This document shows positions 4,401-49,138 of a stretch of DNA of 64,000 nt, piece by piece. A model generated the notes under the pieces. It saw nothing but the letters and a program-made list of their open reading frames with translations. It did no database searches and was not told the DNA's origin. A program made the translations under genes and the position numbers. The first letter of the stretch is position 1. Every line of letters starts with the position of its first letter. The stretch is from positions 1 to 64,000 of the IMG/VR virus record IMGVR_UViG_3300047160_007019; one strand, given 5' to 3'. This DNA comes from a virus (lineage: Duplodnaviria > Caudoviricetes).

Positions 4401-7185
4401 TGCGGTATTGTTGGGCCATGGAGGCGAGTTCATAGCTCTCGTCCGCCATCATCTTGCGAGCGGCAAGGCCACGGCCTTGTTCGGCACCTACGGAGCGTAG
4501 AACTTTGTCCAAAGCATCCATGTCATCTTCGATGGCGGCTGTACGAGTGGCGTATTCGCCCACCGTGGCTTCGTCAGAGCCGGCATCGTTCACCAAAGCC
4601 ATGGCCTTCTGATAGGCGTTATGCAGTGTGACACGGCGATGCAACAGCATCGCGTTCTCCACGTCGTTGAGAGGACGTGGCTTGGCTCTTACCTCATCTA
4701 CTAGACGGCCAACCGATTCAGGGTCTTCCATGATCCGTTCTTTGGCCTCGTCCCACGATTGGCCAAAGCCTTTACTTGCCGCCGACTCCAAAGGCGGAAG
4801 TCCGCGTGCCTCACGTTCCTTATCTACCGTGGCGTGCTTGATGCCGGTGATGTTAGAGGCATAGTCAGGGTCCAATGAGAAGTCGGTACTCGCACCGCCT
4901 TCAATCTTCGCCTCAGAACCACTCTGGCTGAATGCCGGCACCGCCTCACCTCCACCACCGCGCTCCGGCCCAATCTCCTCCAGCGCCTGCCGCACTGCAG
5001 CTCTGGCACCTTCGATGTCCTGCACGAAGCGTGATGCCTGACGGCCCAACTGGTCCGGCGTAGCGCCACCCAGGCGCTGCACGGTGCGATCGAGGAAGTC
5101 CTGAACGTGTGCCATGACGCGGCGGAATACGGACGGCTCCAGGACCTTTTGCAGTTCGCGGATGAAGGCTGGGTCTGCGAAGTGGTCGCCTACCGTCTCG
5201 GCCAGGCGCTCCTCGGTCAAATTGTCCTGCGACAAATCCGACATGCCCAATTCGCGTCGACGCTCGAACAGCATCTTCTCGAACCGCTTGCCAACTTCGG
5301 TGTTGAGAGAACTGGCGATGTTCTGCAGCAGCCGGTTGTAGGTGTCTGGCTGCTCGCTGCGCAGGGAATGCAGGAGCTCGTGGCCGATGATCTGTGCATG
5401 CGGCTTCGTCGCATCGGCGTTGATGTACAACTTGTTGCCGCCAATGTGCACGCCCCGGACTTCCGGCACGTCGCCCTTGAAGAAGACAACCTCTCGGCCG
5501 AACATGCGCTGTATGGCGTTGGCCAGGGCGCGGTTGGCCCTGCTGGTGGCTGGGACGCGCTCTAACTTCACGTCGCGGCCCAATTGCTCCGGCTCCGACA
5601 TCTGGTTCTGCAGGTCTTCCAGGCTACCGGGTTCCGCTGCTGTGTGGCGCATCGCTGCCGATGGGCGGTACTGACTTTCTTTTCCATCCTCAACGCCTTC
5701 CAGTGAGAAGAACGGCTCATGTTGGCTGGGCAGTCCCTCACGGCTAGCGGTCAAGCTCCGGCCATTGGCGATGGTGTCGAAATGCCGGATTCCCACGTCG
5801 CGCGCGAATGCCCCGATGTTTGCAGAAGCTTTCAGGTCGGCCGGCGCGTCTCCTGTCTTCAGGATCATGTTAGAGGCGTTGGAGCGGTCGATGGCCCGCA
5901 GCAGCACTCCCGCGCCGCTGGCCGTATCACCAGTACGCAGTTTGCTCATCTCATTGACATTTATCGGCACCCAACCGACCGGTTTGTGTTGGAAATCCAG
6001 CAATAGCACTCCACTCGGCTCTGGCATCTTGCGGGTCAGGCTGATTGCCTTTTCCATTGAGCTTACCGCCTCTGGCCGCTCTCCGACCATCTTCTCGAAC
6101 CGGCGTCCGGTGACCGGGACTTCGCTGGTGCGGACTGCAGGGGCGATGGATATTTCCCTGGAAGCACCGCCATTCTCTATGTCGTAGAACGAGGCTTTGC
6201 CGTCCGGGGTAACCACCACCATGCCCTTCGGGTCGATGCCGGTACCGCGCAGAGCTTTGGTCAACCGGTCGGTGAGCGAAATATCGGCCCGGCTCTGGTG
6301 TACCGCACCACTGGGATGGTTGTGGGCGAACCAGACTTTCTTAGCGCCTGGAACGGCGTGAATGCTGCCCATAAGCCCAGCAGGGTCAACGCTCGCTGCG
6401 TCCTTAACCCCGATGGTGTGCCGCAGCACTGCGAGCGGCTTGCCATCCTTGTCGGTGACCAGGGCCAACATGCTTTCCTGCGGCTCGCGCCGAAGTGGGG
6501 CAATGACATGGGCAGCTTGCTCAGGCGTGGTAACCCGGTCAATTCCAGACCGGAACGTGCCCGTGCGGACCGCCTTTACGGTGCGCCAGAACTTCCCTTC
6601 GGACCGCGGCGGCGCGGCGGCAGTGTCACGACCTTTGGCGGAGAACAGGTCGAGCTGGCCCTGTATGGGGGCGGGGGACTGAATGTCTGCACCCGTTCCG
6701 GCAGCCTTGTTACCCCGTTGTAGGTTGGCAGCTTCTCGCTCATCGTAGTTGTACTCGGTTGGCTCGAATAGGGACTGCTGGCCATGTGCGGTGGCTTCGT
6801 CTGCCGCTCGATCAGATCCGGTCAGGCGGAGGTCATTGGCGGATTTGTCGGCAGCGGCCTTCTTCGCTTCTTCATCCGCCTTGGCCTTTTCGGCGGCAGC
6901 GGCTTCCTTAGCGGCTTTCTCCTTGGCCGTTACGTCTTCGGAGGTATGGGTTTCTAGCTTGAAAGGCTCTTTCTCTGTTGGAATCTCTCCGCCGGCAGCG
7001 ATGATCTGCTTGTGGATGTCGTCGCGCTCAGCGTGAAGGTCGTCCAGGACCTGCTCAGCAGCCCTGCGCTCAGCCTCTCCCGGCTCTATGCCGGAGTCTT
7101 CATTGTGTTTTGCGAGCGCCCTGATCTGCTTGGCGTAGTAGTCAGGCACCTTGGTTGTCAGAAGACATTTGGCTAACTTTTTCAT
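1357..7185 (-). CDS. giant polyvalent/internal virion protein: RadC-like JAB domain, second degenerate JAB-like domain, zincin metallopeptidase, long coiled-coil region
   Basis: QESMLAL...AHNHPSG...SRAD (JAB); GHELLH...EERLAE (HExxH zincin); 1942 aa at the end of the virion operon. Confidence 0.8.
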   Translation of the reverse strand: MKKLAKCLLTTKVPDYYAKQIRALAKHNEDSGIEPGEAERRAAEQVLDDLHAERDDIHKQIIAAGGEIPTEKEPFKLETHTSEDVTAKEKAAKEAAAAEKAKADEEAKKAAADKSANDLRLTGSDRAADEATAHGQQSLFEPTEYNYDEREAANLQRGNKAAGTGADIQSPAPIQGQLDLFSAKGRDTAAAPPRSEGKFWRTVKAVRTGTFRSGIDRVTTPEQAAHVIAPLRREPQESMLALVTDKDGKPLAVLRHTIGVKDAASVDPAGLMGSIHAVPGAKKVWFAHNHPSGAVHQSRADISLTDRLTKALRGTGIDPKGMVVVTPDGKASFYDIENGGASREISIAPAVRTSEVPVTGRRFEKMVGERPEAVSSMEKAISLTRKMPEPSGVLLLDFQHKPVGWVPINVNEMSKLRTGDTASGAGVLLRAIDRSNASNMILKTGDAPADLKASANIGAFARDVGIRHFDTIANGRSLTASREGLPSQHEPFFSLEGVEDGKESQYRPSAAMRHTAAEPGSLEDLQNQMSEPEQLGRDVKLERVPATSRANRALANAIQRMFGREVVFFKGDVPEVRGVHIGGNKLYINADATKPHAQIIGHELLHSLRSEQPDTYNRLLQNIASSLNTEVGKRFEKMLFERRRELGMSDLSQDNLTEERLAETVGDHFADPAFIRELQKVLEPSVFRRVMAHVQDFLDRTVQRLGGATPDQLGRQASRFVQDIEGARAAVRQALEEIGPERGGGGEAVPAFSQSGSEAKIEGGASTDFSLDPDYASNITGIKHATVDKEREARGLPPLESAASKGFGQSWDEAKERIMEDPESVGRLVDEVRAKPRPLNDVENAMLLHRRVTLHNAYQKAMALVNDAGSDEATVGEYATRTAAIEDDMDALDKVLRSVGAEQGRGLAARKMMADESYELASMAQQYRTAAHGAPLTDADRKVVEKSNKRINDAKKAVDKKEVKADEKASQDQGKEVVDALKTKVKGEDAADTKAGRKRAPKKDAGEIVKSMKKDFDGGKPLEDMGSYIQRLCESFIRQGVDKLDPLVDAVHQVLKQHVAPDITRRQTMDAISGYGDFKKLNPDAVKATLRDLRGQAQQVAKLQDIEAGKAPLKTGMERRTPSDEERRLIQQVNEAKRRAGFLDGKTEDTLKGALASIKTRLRNQISDLDYQIATGKKFVDEKTKVKYDAEAEELKKHRDDLKQQFDDIFGKPEMTDEQRIEAAKKAVQKSIDRYEQRIKEKDFQPEPGKPPVSSKELDALKARRDALKQEFETLKNADPLVRQKNLEDAMAQVRGRIDELNRKISLGDISKPGAPEKLSSPELEALRAERDKLNGTLNDMRQKAMSPEEKNRIALQAWKTRVHGIIADTLERTARGDFSAKERRPLVMDEEGNKLQAELNAAKKEWQKAKLTKRLENRRGYEKWADFYTRWSRAFLLSSPAVFGKLTAAAAARLVTRPIEELAGQGFHYLLPELSKRAPIQGGGLNAKAEAKALREGLVNYHKHFGNYLAKRGDTEKELLYGHGSDKNLKESDVQPDSLADWVGLSHGAFKNAVKEAEFARAFEKQASNYIAQGIDVQDPMVKFQMGVNAWKEANRSIFLGDNRVVDFFNETIGRMERKDKEGHASVGGKIAATAMRTVFPIVRVPTNIVAETMQYAAGLATGSAKYALAIRKGIESLEPEQADQIMRELKKGAIGGPLLLLGYFAPQMFGGYYQKNEKRSAEDVRPGFVRINGVDVPKSVTEAPAFQAAQLGSTVRRVADMAINKRNPDEHEGLWEGMLHGAFGLVSEVPFLRETADWEKIGQSKTMSEGLATYLGELAKSKVVPGVAQWVAREMDMDKPILSLTGQLSGKPYSRETKGFVPAIQEGIPGLRSQLPMTINQLIDIGRTGEAIEQMAKSGMPPREIRARVRARLRDNAAPPALASPKAAPAEPAVATQEDQ

Positions 7186-32022: not shown

Positions 32023-32709
32023 TTACTGAACCTCCGTCGGTTTCTCGCCTGCCTGCGACACAGTGCGGCCGGTGATGAGAGAAACGCCCTGCTGCATAAA
32101 GGCCTGGAACTTCTGGGCGTCGTATCGAGCGGTCTGCTTGCCGTAGCAGAAGGCAACGCCTATGGCGTGTAACGCAGCCAGATAGGTGTCATCCACCACC
32201 AAATCAGTGGCGTCGCTCGTCAGCGCCGGTGGCACTGCGGCGTACTGGCAGTTCAGGGTGCCACTGCCGTTGTTGGCCGGCGATACCATGAACTGCTTGG
32301 GGATGCGCTCGTCGTAGAACCAACGACGTACCAGCGCCTGCTCTCCTGCCGTGGCCTGCCACCCGTAGGGAACACTCAGGCCCTTGTGATCCAGGGACTC
32401 GCGGTCAATCATCTGGACCGTGCTGCCATCGGCACCGTTGCTGTAGATGTCGATGACCTGGGTCCCAACCGGCAGGCTGCCGCTGTTTCCGGCGATAGGC
32501 AATGCCTGCATGGCCCCTGCCGCCAGCGGGATCGTCTCGAACACCGTGTAGGCGTCCGGCTTGATCTGGCAGACGATCTTCTGCGCCTCGTCCACGTAGC
32601 TCAGCAGCTCCGAATCCGCGAACGCCGGGTTGCCCCCGGTAGGAGGCGATGCCGGGTCGTTCATGGTCAAGCGGATCTGCGCGATCACCGTGCTGGCAGG
32701 CAGGGCCAT
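32023..32709 (-). CDS. head-tail adaptor-like, paralog 2
   Basis: ELLSYVDEAQ..VCQIKPDA; KQFMVSPA. Confidence 0.65.
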   Translation of the reverse strand: MALPASTVIAQIRLTMNDPASPPTGGNPAFADSELLSYVDEAQKIVCQIKPDAYTVFETIPLAAGAMQALPIAGNSGSLPVGTQVIDIYSNGADGSTVQMIDRESLDHKGLSVPYGWQATAGEQALVRRWFYDERIPKQFMVSPANNGSGTLNCQYAAVPPALTSDATDLVVDDTYLAALHAIGVAFCYGKQTARYDAQKFQAFMQQGVSLITGRTVSQAGEKPTEVQ

Positions 32710-33713: not shown

Positions 33714-34523
33714 TTAGATGCCGCTGTAGGTGACGTATCCCACCGCGATGTACGTCGGCTCCACCACGTCGAAGCCCCACAGGCACTGGCCGCGGAAAGC
33801 GGTCCCGAACTTGTTGGGCAGGCGGATGAACTCGGGCAGCATGTACTGCATTGCCCAGGTCAGGCCGTCGGGGTGGATGACCAGCACGTTCTCGCAGATC
33901 GGGTTGCCGGTCGAGCTGTCCACGTACTGCGGCAGGAAGGTGGACTCGAACAACTCCATGCCGTCGAACGGCCCGATGTAGCCCGTCCGGATGCCGCCCT
34001 CGCGGTCGCCGGTGACGTTGGCGGCCTGGAGGTTGGTCTGCATCAGCAGCTCTCGGTACGACGGCCCGATAACGACCTTCAGGCCCTCGGTGTAGACGTT
34101 GAGCTGCGTCAGCACGCGCTTCATCTTGAGCAGGAAGCTCTGCGCGTTGGACGTGGAGATGGATACCGGCGCACCGGCCGCCCCCAGGTTCGTGTCGGCG
34201 TTGATGCCCGCCGTCGCGCCCTGGTTGGTGGTGGCTACCTGCGCCGGGATGCCGGCGAGGATGGTCTTGTCCTGCTGGATCGAGATTTGCCGGACAGCAT
34301 CGTCCGACAGGCGCTCGAAGTTGTTGTTGATCGCCTGGTAGGCGTCCACGTCCTCGTAAACGAAGGCGTAGCCGTGGCGCTGGTTGATGTACAACTGCGC
34401 CGCGGGCGTCGTCGGGGTCGTGTAGGCGCCCTGCGCCACAAGGTCGAAGTCCTTGTCGGCGAAGAAGACCTGCACGGTCGGCGTGCGCGGGATGATGACG
34501 GATTGACCGTACTCGCGGATTTC
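33714..34523 (-). CDS. major capsid protein, exon 3 (269 aa)
   Basis: EIREYGQSVII...INQRHGYAFVYEDVD...F....RGQCLWG; begins right after intron-2 terminal G. Confidence 0.85.
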   Translation of the reverse strand, partial: EIREYGQSVIIPRTPTVQVFFADKDFDLVAQGAYTTPTTPAAQLYINQRHGYAFVYEDVDAYQAINNNFERLSDDAVRQISIQQDKTILAGIPAQVATTNQGATAGINADTNLGAAGAPVSISTSNAQSFLLKMKRVLTQLNVYTEGLKVVIGPSYRELLMQTNLQAANVTGDREGGIRTGYIGPFDGMELFESTFLPQYVDSSTGNPICENVLVIHPDGLTWAMQYMLPEFIRLPNKFGTAFRGQCLWGFDVVEPTYIAVGYVTYSGI

Positions 34524-35238
34524 CGTTTTCTTCATGTCCATGGTTCTTTATCCATGGCTCCTGCCGCTTTCGTCGGCAGACGAGACTATCTCTTTAGGCC
34601 GGTAGCGAATCACAGTGCCGAGACCCTGTTGAATCGCGTGTAGGCGCGCGTGTTGCTTTCTTGGCATCACTTCCAGATTTTCCGGAATGTTGTTGACCTT
34701 GTTTTCGTCGTCGTGATGGGCGACTTCCTCTTTGGTCAACGGACGGCCGAGCTTGCGCTCAGCGATGATGCGATGCTCGCGCACGTAACCCTTGGAGTCT
34801 GCCTCCGGGTGATCCGGCATCTGGATCATCCGGTAGCCGTTCCAGGTCGTGATGAAGCCGACATGGTAGGGGTCCTTGAATGGAATCCCCGCCGCGCGTG
34901 CGTGCTTCTTCACGGTGCCTGGATCAAGGCCGAGTTGCTTCGCAGCCTTCGGCGCAGACATTCCGCTCAGCGCCATGGCTTTGATTTTCTCGACAATCTC
35001 CGGTGTTACTTTCCTATTCATGTTTTTGGCCTATCCCGTTTTCGTGGCGCTATACCGTCCGGTCTGGACTCCATGCGCTAGTCGTTGAACCTTCGCCGCA
35101 TTCCTGCGGCGCTTGGCTGCTGATTGCCCAATCCGAACATTTTTCAGACCGTCGCGCTTGCCATTGCTGGCTACGCTGTGGTGTATTCGGCTCTGAGGGG
35201 TTTCCAGCAATTTACGGGATTTAACGAAGGCTAATTCA
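34524..35238 (-). ncRNA. group I intron 2 (IA-like) in major capsid gene, ORF-containing
   Basis: P1 GAAGGU/GCCUUC with U.G pair; P3 UCCCGU/ACGGGA; P7 GACUA/UAGUC; P8 UAGGCC/GGCCUA; P9 hairpins; terminal G at 34524. Confidence 0.9.
34548..35021 (-). CDS. intron-encoded HNH homing endonuclease (N-terminal HTH-like region + HNH_3-type domain)
   Basis: YVREHRIIAE..LGRPL...AHHDDENKVNN..ENL; lies in P8 loop of intron 2. Confidence 0.9.
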   Translation of the reverse strand: MNRKVTPEIVEKIKAMALSGMSAPKAAKQLGLDPGTVKKHARAAGIPFKDPYHVGFITTWNGYRMIQMPDHPEADSKGYVREHRIIAERKLGRPLTKEEVAHHDDENKVNNIPENLEVMPRKQHARLHAIQQGLGTVIRYRPKEIVSSADESGRSHG

Positions 35239-35247
35239 ACCTTCCCA
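35239..35247 (-). CDS. major capsid protein, exon 2 (9-nt micro-exon, W-E-G)
   Basis: TGGGAAGGT; restores ICNNT-WEG-EI in frame. Confidence 0.8.
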
Positions 35248-35564
35248 CAGGTCGTGTTACCCATCGGGCTTTTTATCCCGATGTTCTGCGACTCTCGCCG
35301 CAGATCAGCATATTTCTTCATCCCCTTGTGATGGGGAGCCGCGCACTCGTGGACCTTCATAGTCCGGTCTGGACCGTATGGCCTATGCGTTGAACCTTCC
35401 GGCCATTCCTGGTCGGCTTGGCTGCAGATTGCCCATTCCGGCGTGCACGCCGAATCCACGATCTTTTCGACCGTCGCATTTGTTCTTACGAACTGTGCTG
35501 TGGTGACCATGGCTTTAGGGTTTTCCTGTCAGTTCACGCGGTTTTTCAACACCTGGGTTAGTTA
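35248..35564 (-). ncRNA. group I intron 1 (IA-like) in major capsid gene, ORF-less
   Basis: P1 CAACACU/GGUGUUG with U.G pair; P10 CCCA/UGGG; P3 CCGCGU/GCGCGG; P7 GCAUA/UAUGC; P9 with GAGA loop; terminal G at 35248. Confidence 0.9.
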
Positions 35565-35711
35565 AGTGTTGTTGCAGATTTCCGCTGCAATAACTTTTCC
35601 GTAGTGCTTCACAGTGCACGTTGTCGACCACAAGGTCGGCAGCAGCGCACCGTTGGCAATCGTTGAAACGTCGGGGTACTGGGACCCCGGAACAATTGGC
35701 AATGCGGCCAC
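35565..35711 (-). CDS. major capsid protein, exon 1 (49 aa)
   Basis: GTG start with AGAGGA SD; LLPTLWS..HYGKVIAAEICNNT then in-frame TAA at intron start. Confidence 0.85.
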
Positions 35712-37028: not shown

Positions 37029-37331
37029 TCACCGTTTGGCGAAGTGCGGGTTGTCCCGCTGCCCGAAGTTGATGTCCACGGTCGGACGTGCTGCCGGCGC
37101 CGTGGGGGGCTGCAAAGTCTTGACAGCGATGTCTTCCAGCGTCAGGAAGGCGTGCAGTACCTGCGCGCCGCCCTGGACGCGGTACAGGTTCGGCCCTTCG
37201 ATTTCCCGAAGAACCTTCTGCGTCTCGTCCTGCATGTCCTGGAAGATTCCGCATAGGGTCTTAAAGTCCAGGTTGGTCTGGAGCCGGCGCACCGCTGCCG
37301 CCTGCTCCGCTGAGAGCTTGATCTGGAACAT
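37029..37331 (-). CDS. hypothetical protein (LYRVQG motif, typical between portal and scaffold)
   Basis: likely start MFQIKL at 37331. Confidence 0.65.
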   Translation of the reverse strand: MFQIKLSAEQAAAVRRLQTNLDFKTLCGIFQDMQDETQKVLREIEGPNLYRVQGGAQVLHAFLTLEDIAVKTLQPPTAPAARPTVDINFGQRDNPHFAKR

Positions 37332-39951
37332 ACGAATAGGTGTCCTCGTCCTGCTGTTGCTGATCTGCGCCCGGCAGCATCGGGACCGCGCCGGAGTAGT
37401 AGCCGACACCGCCATCCGGGTTCACCGACATGCCGCGGCGGATGTTCGCCACGTTGATCGCGGTACGGTTCTTTTCCTGGTCTGCCTTGGTCTTCTGCGC
37501 CAGCTTCGCGCCCTCGATCTTCTCTCGGCTCTTGTCGTGCGCCTGGTGGGTGAGCGCCTGGAGTTGAGCCGGGTTCGGTGGCGGGTTGGCCATCCGCTGT
37601 TCGATCTTGGCGATGGCCTTCTGCAGGTCCGCGCCTTGGGGGATGAAGTCGGCGGGAAAATGGAGGCCCTTGAAGTAGTCGCGCAGCACGTCGGCGATCT
37701 TGTCCATGCCGGCGAGCTGCTGCACCAGTGGATTTGACAGAACCAGTTGCATGCCCTGCTGGCGTCCCTGCTGCATCTGCTCCTTGATGAGCAAGGCAGC
37801 AGACCCCTTGGGGACCACGTTGCAGTCGCCCTTGATCTGCGGATCGTCGACGTGGAGCATGCACCACACGAACACGTCATAGACCGTCTCGGCCAGCACC
37901 TTCATGTCGATGTTGTTGATGGCTCGGCGGATGCGCCGTGCAGCTGCGCCCATCAGCATGGACAGGCCACCCATCGTCGCGCCAGCGCCAGCCACCTTCT
38001 CGTCGCCGTAGCTGTAACGCGGTATGCCAGTGGCGTCATCGGCGTCACCCATGAACGCCTGGTAGATTTGCAGAAGTTCCGATGCGATGGATTGCGGTTG
38101 GAAGAACTGGATTGGCACCGCAGCTGCGCCAGTCTGCCCCGTCTCCGGCTTGTTGAACTGCCAGATTTTCCATGGGAACATCTGCGTGATGGATTCATTC
38201 GGTGGCAGGCGGTCGCTGTTGATGCCAACCTGCGGGCCGGAGGCGATGCCCATGTTGTTGATAAGCGCGCGCGCTGCAGCGTTGCAGGCGTCCTGCTGAC
38301 TGGCGCAGAGCTCTGGGACAGCACGGCCCCAGATGGAACCCGGAATCTCCTCGAACGAGGCATGGTGATACGGCCGACGGCCCAGCGGGTCATCGTTGAT
38401 CGTGCAGTACACGACGCGGGTGCCAATCAGGATGGCCGACACCTGATAGCGCCTCTCCGGGTCCAGGCCGGCAGGGTCGTTGGTCTTGACGCCCCAGTTC
38501 ATCAACTTGCGTCCCTCGATCGCGCCCCAGTAGTGCAGGGCGTCGATCAGGTCATCCTTGCAGAACCAGTCGAACGTGGTGTCGTTCTCCAGGCGGGCGC
38601 GCTCGGCATCGGTCCAGATCCAGTTGCGCAGCAGACCGCCTTGGTGCTGGTTGCAGGCCCAGCGGATGGCTTCCTCGTCGTAGCCGTCAACGCCGATGCA
38701 CTCGTACAACTCCTCGTAGTTCAGGCGCAGGCGTTCGATAAAGTCACGGTCCTGGCAATTGCGCGCCAGCGGAGCGGGGTACACGTCGAACGGGGATACC
38801 GGCTTCCAGAACAGACGCGGTGCCGTCTCCACCATGGGCTTCCATTCGGAGCTGCTGCCGACTGGCATGATCCACTTGAGCTGCTTGCTGTTCTTCGTGT
38901 ACGGCCCTTTCAAGAAGGCCGTGGGGTAGGTCGAGAAATACTCGATGAACTCCGCGAAAGAACCGTCGAAGTTGCCGTCGTCCATCTGCTGAAAGACGCA
39001 CTCCTCCATCTTGTCGGCGGCCACGCGAGCGCGACGGCGGGTCGCCATCTTCACGTCGTCTTCCATTTGATCGGAGATAGTGAAGATCAGGTCGCGGTAG
39101 GAGTCTCGGTCCATCGCCGGACCGCCCTGCTGGAATGCCTCCACCATGATCTGCTGCGCACGCTGACTCGCGGCTTGCTTGATGATCTCTCGCACTTCGG
39201 GTGGCAGTTGCGGCAGATGACGGGGCTCCAGGCCGCAGGGACGGTCGCCCGGCGCCAGCAGAATCTCCTTCATCCAACTCGCCAGCGCCGCGCACTTGGT
39301 GCTGGACACGTTCATGTAGATCGTGCTGTTCGCGCCGCTGCGCTGAATCTCCGCCATCTCGGAGATGGAGTACACGCTCTTGCGCGCCCGCAAGCATTGA
39401 AGCAGGCGACCGTCGGTGATCTGCTTGGAGAGCTTGTTACGCTCCCAGCTGTACTTGATCTGGCCGCCGATCAGAGAGTGTCGCACGGCCTGCAGGTCGA
39501 ACTGCTCGGCACCAGCCTCCTCAACTTTCACGTCACCGGGCATGGACGTGATGTAGTTGGGACCGGTGTGCGGAGTCTTACCGGCCTCGTTGGCGGCGAA
39601 CTGGTCGTTCGGACGCGTGCTTTCGTCGCTGCCTGGGTTACGTACAGGCTGGTCCATCGGACCCATCGGGCGGATGCCTGGAGCGTCGCCAGGTCCTGCG
39701 CCGGCACCAGTGTTGGGTCCGGAGCCGAAGCGGCCTTCGCTCGCCTGGGAGGCGCGCACGGATGAATTCTGTCCAGGGCCGGGCTGGAAGCGAGAGTTGA
39801 TCGTTTTCTGCACCGAGTCCTGCGCGCCGCGGCCGAAGCGCGCATTGATCCCGCCACCACCCTTGAAGGTGGCCTGGGAGGCGTTCTGGATGCTCTCCGG
39901 GCCTTGGCGGCCGAAGCGCGAGGTGCCTTGCATGTTTTGGATATTGTCCAT
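37261..39951 (-). CDS. portal protein
   Basis: PVSPFDVYPAP, RPYHHASFEEIPGSIWG, INNMGIASGPQ, TMGGLSMLM; follows terminase cluster. Confidence 0.85.
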   Translation of the reverse strand: MDNIQNMQGTSRFGRQGPESIQNASQATFKGGGGINARFGRGAQDSVQKTINSRFQPGPGQNSSVRASQASEGRFGSGPNTGAGAGPGDAPGIRPMGPMDQPVRNPGSDESTRPNDQFAANEAGKTPHTGPNYITSMPGDVKVEEAGAEQFDLQAVRHSLIGGQIKYSWERNKLSKQITDGRLLQCLRARKSVYSISEMAEIQRSGANSTIYMNVSSTKCAALASWMKEILLAPGDRPCGLEPRHLPQLPPEVREIIKQAASQRAQQIMVEAFQQGGPAMDRDSYRDLIFTISDQMEDDVKMATRRRARVAADKMEECVFQQMDDGNFDGSFAEFIEYFSTYPTAFLKGPYTKNSKQLKWIMPVGSSSEWKPMVETAPRLFWKPVSPFDVYPAPLARNCQDRDFIERLRLNYEELYECIGVDGYDEEAIRWACNQHQGGLLRNWIWTDAERARLENDTTFDWFCKDDLIDALHYWGAIEGRKLMNWGVKTNDPAGLDPERRYQVSAILIGTRVVYCTINDDPLGRRPYHHASFEEIPGSIWGRAVPELCASQQDACNAAARALINNMGIASGPQVGINSDRLPPNESITQMFPWKIWQFNKPETGQTGAAAVPIQFFQPQSIASELLQIYQAFMGDADDATGIPRYSYGDEKVAGAGATMGGLSMLMGAAARRIRRAINNIDMKVLAETVYDVFVWCMLHVDDPQIKGDCNVVPKGSAALLIKEQMQQGRQQGMQLVLSNPLVQQLAGMDKIADVLRDYFKGLHFPADFIPQGADLQKAIAKIEQRMANPPPNPAQLQALTHQAHDKSREKIEGAKLAQKTKADQEKNRTAINVANIRRGMSVNPDGGVGYYSGAVPMLPGADQQQQDEDTYSYVPDQALSGAGGSGAPAPDQPGL

Positions 39952-48735: not shown

Positions 48736-48811
48736 TGGTACCCCTGGGGAGACTCGAACTCCCGACACCCAACTTAGAACGAAGGGACTCTACCGACTGA
48801 GCTACAGGGGT
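48736..48811 (-). tRNA. tRNA-Arg(TCT), weak anticodon stem
   Basis: cloverleaf, loop GT-TCT-AA, CCA. Confidence 0.75.
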
Positions 48812-48823
48812 ATGGCGGACGGT

Positions 48824-48899
48824 TGGATCAAGCAGCAGGAATCGAACCTGCGTGGTCGACGTTCAAAGCGTCGCTGGGATGCCAGCAACCCATGCTTGA
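48824..48899 (-). tRNA. tRNA-Gln(TTG)
   Basis: loop CT-TTG-AA, CCA. Confidence 0.85.
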
Positions 48900-48900
48900 A

Positions 48901-48975
48901 TGGAACGCCAGGAGGGAATCGAACCCTCGGCCACCCCGCTAGGACCGGGGAGCTCTACCGCTGAGCTACTGGCGT
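48901..48975 (-). tRNA. tRNA-Arg(CCT)
   Basis: loop GT-CCT-AG. Confidence 0.85.
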
Positions 48976-48978
48976 GTG

Positions 48979-49056
48979 TGGTGCGCAGTGTGGGAGTCGA
49001 ACCCACAAGCCGCTCGTTTTGAGCGAGCGAGGTATGCCAGTTCCCTTCAACTGCGC
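48979..49056 (-). tRNA. tRNA-Leu(CAA), no variable arm
   Basis: loop CT-CAA-AA; 5-nt V loop. Confidence 0.85.
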
Positions 49057-49057
49057 G

Positions 49058-49134
49058 TGGTGCCGGGCCGGGGACTCGAACCCCGAAAACGCAAGGTTTA
49101 AATCTGCGATGTCTGCCGATTGCATCAGCCCGGC
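49058..49134 (-). tRNA. tRNA-Leu(TAA), no variable arm
   Basis: loop TT-TAA-AC; 5-nt V loop. Confidence 0.8.
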
Positions 49135-49138
49135 GTAG

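Follow-up and report, generated by a model that had tools for sequence, protein, structure and literature searches.

Two tandem group I introns around a nine-nucleotide micro-exon split a phage capsid gene

The capsid gene of an uncultured soil phage (Duplodnaviria; Caudoviricetes) is split by two tandem group I introns that enclose a micro-exon of 9 nucleotides (nt). The gene occupies positions 33,714 to 35,711 on the minus strand of the window, by which we mean the whole 64,000-nt stretch analyzed here, positions 1 to 64,000 of the IMG/VR virus record IMGVR_UViG_3300047160_007019 (76,993 bp in full and estimated to be 94% complete). We proposed, with a probability of about 0.85, that the two insertions are separate subgroup-IA-like introns, selfish mobile elements lodged at neighboring homing sites 9 bp apart in the motif ICNNT-WEG-EI, which splice independently of each other and leave the micro-exon in the mRNA. 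Independent self-splicing is expected because each intron has its own guide, its own complete core, and its own terminal G. Each intron would excise itself via two guanosine-initiated transesterifications, and the capsid protein of 321 amino acids (aa) would be made only from the doubly spliced mRNA; since an in-frame stop codon opens each intron, ribosomes on unspliced or half-spliced RNA would release peptides of 49 or 52 aa at the UAA or UGA. Intron 2 encodes a putative HNH endonuclease, which presumably cuts intron-less alleles and would thereby allow this intron to home; intron 1 is without an endonuclease gene.

Structure of the split gene and its predicted product

All of the coordinates and pairings by which the split gene was first described (exons and introns, P1, P10, P7, and the terminal G of each intron) were present in the minus-strand sequence (table 1). 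Exon 1 is preceded, 7 nt upstream of its GTG, by the ribosome-binding site AGAGGA (35724-35719), and it ends in ...AUC UGC AAC AAC ACU (35565), with the UAA directly next; its last base, U35565, is the U of the splice-site U.G pair in P1 of intron 1. The P10 guide of intron 1 pairs with the first four bases of the micro-exon, whose bases 4-9 form the P1 strand of intron 2. Combined, the U.G rule and the terminal-G rule left a single possible register at each intron. Joined in this register, the exons (35711-35565, 35247-35239, and 34523-33714) gave a coding sequence of 966 nt, free of internal stops, for 321 aa; the predicted spliced mRNA reads ...AACAACACU-UGGGAAGGU-GAAAUC... across both junctions (hyphens mark the junctions), and its product reads ...EICNNT-WEG-EIREYGQ....

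Table 1. Coordinates of the split capsid gene, its introns, and the contigs that cover it
Feature	Positions	Strand	Description
Capsid exon 1	35565..35711	-	49 codons, GTG start at 35711; from the list of open reading frames (ORFs)
Intron 1	35248..35564	-	group I, 317 nt, no ORF, opens with in-frame UAA
Micro-exon UGGGAAGGU	35239..35247	-	9 nt, codes for Trp-Glu-Gly
Intron 2	34524..35238	-	group I, 715 nt, opens with in-frame UGA, HNH ORF in P8 loop
HNH homing endonuclease ORF (putative)	34548..35021	-	157 aa, in intron 2; N-terminal helix-turn-helix and C-terminal HNH_3
Capsid exon 3	33714..34523	-	269 codons plus stop, opens with GAA AUC (Glu-Ile)
Predicted competitor hairpin	35229..35262	-	in unspliced RNA; minimum free energy -12.6 kcal/mol
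Logan run X1	33824-34629		covers intron 2/exon 3 junction
Logan run X2	35224-35374
Logan run X3	34788-35463		covers micro-exon
Logan run X4	35400-35621		covers exon 1/intron 1 junction

The preliminary description had suggested an alignment to intron-less capsid homologs, and this comparison upheld both the two-intron structure and the 321-aa product. The homologs found with exon 3 as the query were uninterrupted and 319-328 aa long, and the product was colinear with five of them without a gap at either junction. Against the homolog P0001, 285 of the 321 residues were identical (89%), gap-free at both junctions (ICNNT-WEG-EI vs. ICNNT-WNG-EI); exon 1 was 86% identical to residues 1-49 of this protein and exon 3 was 90% identical to residues 53-319. 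Across the junction region, P0001 reads ...EICNNTWNGEIENYGQ..., P0003 reads EICNNDWEGDIKTMGQ, P0005 reads EICSNTWEADIKSMGQ, P0006 reads NDWEGDIK, and P0008 reads SNWEGEIK; thus, the homologs carry W-[EN]-[GA] where the micro-exon codes for Trp-Glu-Gly, and the Trp was invariant in the five-homolog alignment (A1). The W/Y-E-G-E-I motif that had been put forward for this class of capsids is also recognizable, as NTWNGEI, NDWEGDI, NTWEADI, and NWEGEI in the homologs and as TDYEGEI in a distant one. Precise excision of the introns would restore a reading frame colinear with the intron-less alleles.

The identity of the gene was supported by its largest part, the exon 3 ORF (34541-33714), which matched Pfam PF25209 (Phage_capsid_4, 34.3 bits vs. 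a cut-off of 27) and PHROG phrog_267 (major head protein, 5e-20), and the closest cultured relatives of the capsid carry the annotation major capsid protein. The gene is flanked by a portal (37261-39951) and an adaptor (32023-32709), both of SU10 type, and the region is thus the head module of a tailed phage; the split gene is the only capsid gene in the record. As had been stated, ORF callers miss this structure: they start the capsid at AUG 34541, inside P9.1 of intron 2, and report a 275-codon fragment and a 49-aa orphan ORF. An ORF of 159 aa on the minus strand (35510-35031), which spans the intron 1 core, the micro-exon, and the intron 2 core, had no credible family match and was taken as spurious; it is probably open by chance and could be reported by gene callers.

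The arrangement was found in DNA beyond the record. The stretch is present in many soil-metagenome DNA runs, and separate Logan contigs from four of them matched every junction with zero differences (table 1). Conserved blocks of the intron cores, common to many phage introns, partially match this region, and an assembler could in principle have joined intron copies from other phages into the capsid gene; with each junction bridged by separate contigs without differences (X3, X2, X4, and X1), this can be virtually dismissed. The contigs of the four soil DNA runs contained no joint at the splice sites that would mark an allele with one intron or none, and the joints and loose ends among these contigs were short pieces of other introns' conserved cores. 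The public runs containing the stretch included no RNA run.

Fold and lineage of the two introns

At the gathering threshold, an Rfam scan reported tRNAs only and no intron. A permissive scan returned two Intron_gpI (RF00028) matches, at 35597-35286 (41.0 bits, E 1.8e-8) and at 35259-34561 (44.1 bits, E 2.2e-9), both full-length (model positions 1-253); since the curated gathering score of this model is 50, a default scan misses both introns. In a genome-wide search with Intron_gpI the E-values were 1.4e-10 for intron 1 and 5.9e-10 for intron 2. A direct helix check found P1, P3, P4, P5, P6/P6a, P7, nested P7.1/P7.2, P8, P9, and P9.1 complementary in both introns. In intron 1, all 7 positions of P1 (CAACACU/GGUGUUG, guide at 35553-35547) are paired and U35565.G35553 is the splice-site pair; the P10 guide CCCA (35557-35554) lies opposite UGGG of the micro-exon, and the intron ends in G35248. 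In intron 2, all 6 positions of P1 (GAAGGU/GCCUUC, guide at 35231-35226) are paired, U35239.G35231 is the splice-site pair, and the intron ends in G34524. Rfam placed P1 of intron 2 elsewhere (CGACCU/AGGUUG), but this placement offers no U.G splice site that fits the protein alignment and was rejected; it corresponds instead to the competitor hairpin of table 1.

Comparison between introns added to this picture. P7 covaries (GCAUA/UAUGC in intron 1 vs. GACUA/UAGUC in intron 2) with its outer G-C pair kept in both, a pair that we take to be the guanosine-binding site. P7.1/P7.2 follow P7 and precede the 3' strand of P3, with GGCC/GGUC around GUCC/GGAC in intron 1 and GCGC/GCGC around GUCC/GGAC in intron 2, so that the outer helix covaries between the introns; such extra helices mark the phage-type subgroup IA, and our subgroup-IA-like assignment is based on them. 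RNAalifold, run on four introns (introns 1 and 2 of the window and the introns of loci L003 and L096, described below), recovered P1, P3, P4, P5 with its extension, P6, P7.1, P7.2, P9, and P9.1, kept 31 of 72 pairs through changes on both sides, and had the splice-site U.G in 4/4 introns. The matches and pairings are well beyond chance, and from these models we infer that both introns would be catalytic.

The putative endonuclease ORF of intron 2 is intact and matched Pfam PF13392 (HNH_3, 35.7 bits vs. a cut-off of 24.8) and PHROG HNH endonuclease families down to 6e-21. It starts in the P8 loop and runs through P8', J8/7, P7', P9, and the 5' strand of P9.1 into the P9.1 loop.

The two introns of the window and the L003 intron are 70-76% identical over the core and have in common a long P5 extension and P7.1/P7.2, whereas the only other site-1 intron, in L002, is related but compact and lacks the P5 extension. 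On these grounds (identity, P5 extension, and P7.1/P7.2), intron 1 is closer to the site-2 introns than to the L002 site-1 intron, which is compatible with its derivation by a move to the neighboring site. Selection for "orthogonality" of the intron pair was considered and not adopted, because the single site-2 intron of L003 is equally diverged from intron 2 (73% identity vs. about 70% between introns 1 and 2). A motif common to these introns, GGTTCAACG-N13-GTCCAGACCGGA, was found in 17 other IMG/VR loci (L088-L104). The ORFs flanking ten of these loci were tested, and they were SU10_MCP capsids in 6/10 and a P22-type coat protein in 1/10; judging from these sequences, the intron lineage invades phage capsid genes repeatedly. 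Several of the L088-L104 insertions lie near a conserved ...TL(H/F)EWQTD.L motif. In L093, an ORF with an HNH-like end (...CPSCHHSRH; 5181-5714, minus strand) abuts the P4 region of a related intron; the endonuclease gene thus appears to occupy the 5' portion of the intron, which is not the arrangement in the window.

Occupancy of the two sites in relatives

Among relatives, the two sites were found empty, singly occupied, and, in this window only, both occupied. No intron interrupts the gene in L006 or in L001, which encodes P0001 and reads ...AAC AAC ACA TGG AAT GGC GAG ATT.... Site 1 alone is occupied in L002, where an 883-nt intron with a LAGLIDADG_2 ORF follows ...AAC GAU and is succeeded by uninterrupted TGG GAG GGC GAG. 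Site 2 alone is occupied in L003, L007 (the same contig as L086), and L087, by an ORF-less 404-nt intron after TGG GAG GGU with site 1 empty. It is also occupied in L096, found by an intron motif scan, whose distant capsid (about 30% identity) reads ...TDYEG-EIAGFG and holds, at 1624-2519 on the minus strand, an intron of about 900 nt with the architecture of intron 2. The exon ends in U at every occupied site (ACU, GAU, and GGU) and in A or C at every empty one (ACA, ACC, GAC, and GGC); this is what the U.G requirement predicts, and it therefore gives independent support for both splice sites. The occupancy pattern, as read from these sequences, is that of dispensable mobile elements.

The ORFs in the site-2 introns of L096 and the window are 54% identical in protein (E 2e-50), and the 12-nt exon flank GAAGGT-GAAATC is identical in the two loci, which suggests that the intron and its endonuclease may move as a unit between distant capsid lineages. 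Two pattern scans of IMG/VR, the first for these exon sequences joined without an intron and the second for more introns at site 1, returned no match.

Several features of these relatives were recorded besides. The L002 intron (2097-2979) is compact, with its LAGLIDADG_2 ORF (2235-2900) between P7 and the 3' strand of P3 rather than in P8 as in intron 2 of the window, and it uses a CCCA P10 guide identical to that of intron 1. In the L003/L007 intron, a non-coding insert of about 120 nt (L003:2730-2850) occupies the P8 loop, where intron 2 of the window has the HNH gene, and may be the remnant of a lost endonuclease ORF; P7 of this intron has one A.C mismatch. NCBIfam gave no match for the capsid ORF, the HNH ORF, or the LAGLIDADG ORF.

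Order and outcome of splicing, and comparison with known systems

P10 of intron 1 and P1 of intron 2 together span all nine bases of the micro-exon and overlap at one base, G35244, in agreement with the single shared G noted before. The computed energy of P10 is -4.1 kcal/mol and falls to -0.8 without the shared G. Before splicing, the local fold of lowest predicted energy is the competitor hairpin. In it the micro-exon and the opening bases of intron 2, some of the intron 2 guide among them, are paired to the 3' tail of intron 1, and it is more stable than P1 of intron 2 alone (-7.0 kcal/mol). Once intron 1 is removed, the hairpin is gone and the prediction changes to P1 of intron 2. The hairpin was only modestly better than shuffled sequence (z -2.1; 8 of 200 shuffles equally good) and is without comparative support, one double-intron allele being known. 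Either order of two group I splicing reactions is chemically possible and gives the same product. Given the polarity of transcription and the masking hairpin, removal of intron 1 before intron 2 is plausible as the likelier order. The earlier suggestion that the two events may have to be ordered is to this extent plausible.

We considered it unlikely that the shared micro-exon forces intron 1 out before intron 2 and in this way times or limits capsid production. The shared G, on which the stability of P10 depends, the hairpin that outcompetes P1 of intron 2 until intron 1 is spliced, and the earlier transcription of intron 1 would all fit such a scheme; but the order freedom of the chemistry and the modest hairpin do not require it, and relatives that have no intron, or an intron at one of the two sites, encode this same capsid, so that the introns are dispensable and are not needed for regulation. 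The timing or regulatory gate put forward in the preliminary description therefore found no support. A wider proposal, which we hold to be doubtful though conceivable, is an obligatory two-step ribozyme cascade acting on the most abundant phage protein, in which removal of intron 1 would license intron 2, and, relatedly, a double-intron allele that would persist by immunity during co-infection to both motif-targeting homing endonucleases (LAGLIDADG for site 1 and HNH for site 2).

Skipping of the micro-exon would be, as had been pointed out, an in-frame deletion of 3 aa (ICNNT-EIREY), and a shorter second capsid isoform could arise in this manner, since tandem group I introns skip exons of 23 nt (Twort orf142) and 34 nt (the Coxiella 23S rRNA pair) in published cases, as far as the source describes them (PMC10136302). 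We regarded this outcome as very improbable here. Distinct splice-site guides favor exon inclusion (PMC10136302), and by computed pairing exon 1 does not pair with the guide of intron 2; chimeric P7 helices were unstable at +0.5 and +1.8 kcal/mol (vs. -3.3 and -3.4 for the cognate helices), and chimeric P3 reached about half of the cognate energy. Because the guides and P3, P4, and P7 of the two introns are not interchangeable, retention of the micro-exon is expected, consistent with the invariance in homologs of the Trp that skipping would remove.

Several points weigh against independent splicing with the micro-exon retained. A 9-nt exon leaves little space for two docked ribozyme cores; the Rfam scores of both introns (41 and 44) stay under 50; and the P10 pairing of intron 2 is weak, with 4/5 pairs between GAAUU and GAAAUC when read by eye and no stable duplex computed for AUU/AAU. 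In addition, because an intron at either site breaks up the flank of the neighboring homing site, the rise of a double-intron allele is hard to explain. The sub-threshold scores and the loss of any endonuclease ORF from intron 1 could also be read as decay or dependence on a protein, such that one or both introns no longer splice unaided and the gene is crippled or the phage defective. We gave this only a slight probability, because every core helix is intact, including the P7 base pair that forms the G-binding site, the exons match an intact homolog at 89% identity and are free of frameshifts, and the arrangement was assembled from several soil runs. Two independently splicing introns thus remained our preferred reading.

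Phage subgroup IA introns with homing endonuclease genes include those of T4 td, nrdB, and sunY and the SPO1 DNA polymerase intron (I-HmuI). Like them, the introns of the window have P7.1/P7.2 between P7 and P3' and a stop codon at the intron start, and the endonuclease ORF is looped from a peripheral helix and overlaps 3' strands of the core; unlike them, the host gene is different and the putative endonuclease has a helix-turn-helix N-terminal to HNH_3. Among tandem arrangements, the closest parallel is Twort orf142, where, as far as the available accounts describe it, introns I2 and I3 are highly similar, enclose an exon of 23 nt, and show exon skipping (Landthaler and Shub 1999, via PMC10136302 and PMC3073962). 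Both cases are phage genes with tandem, related subgroup-IA-type introns around a very short exon; the present locus differs in its exon of 9 nt, its introns of only about 70% identity, its non-interchangeable guides and P3/P7, and the inclusion predicted for its exon. Skipping can proceed through one hybrid ribozyme or through the downstream intron using the upstream junction as a distal splice site (PMC10136302), and the introns of the window have neither the similarity for a hybrid ribozyme nor the common guides that characterize Twort-type skipping. The Coxiella burnetii pair, in the described cases, skips its 34-nt exon with introns of subgroups IB2 and IA3 (PMC10136302); so far as that description goes, it differs from the present locus in lying in an rRNA gene, in exon length, and in combining different subgroups.

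Capsid genes with one group I intron have also been described. The major capsid gene of mycobacteriophage LittleE is interrupted by a single intron that carries a homing endonuclease gene, and its spliced product has been demonstrated by experiment (PMC3706429); the major capsid gene of the lactococcal phage Tuc2009 is cited there as having a single intron with a spliced product. As in these phages, insofar as they are described there, a group I intron interrupts the most highly expressed virion gene; unlike them, with one intron each and the RNA product shown, the present gene has two introns 9 nt apart and a spliced product predicted from DNA. In fungal and protist mitochondrial genes, organellar introns regularly enclose mini-exons of less than about four codons (PMC10352661). 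These resemble the micro-exon in comprising a few codons between self-splicing introns, in being missed by gene callers, and in being recovered through conserved residues (PMC10352661); unlike them, the micro-exon lies in a phage structural gene.

Capsid introns and tandem group I introns are thus already published, and the locus is an extreme example rather than a new mechanism, with an internal exon shorter than the published 23-nt and 34-nt phage and bacterial examples that we found; it leaves knowledge of how group I introns work unchanged. Its practical weight lies elsewhere. With the capsid truncated by gene callers and both introns missed at the default Rfam threshold, classifying such phages by their capsids gives a distorted result. 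Together with its relatives, the locus forms a series of natural alleles (none, site 1, site 2, and both) for two homing sites that lie 9 bp apart, and it offers a compact test bed for how tandem ribozymes avoid exon skipping, for enforced splicing order, and for the coexistence of homing elements that disrupt each other's flank.

Apart from the capsid region, the window contains a dense tRNA array on the minus strand at 48739-51807, with 24 Rfam matches at the gathering threshold. One of its members (49393-49479) matched the tRNA-Sec model at 48.7 bits, against a cut-off of 47, and may be a tRNA with a long variable arm.

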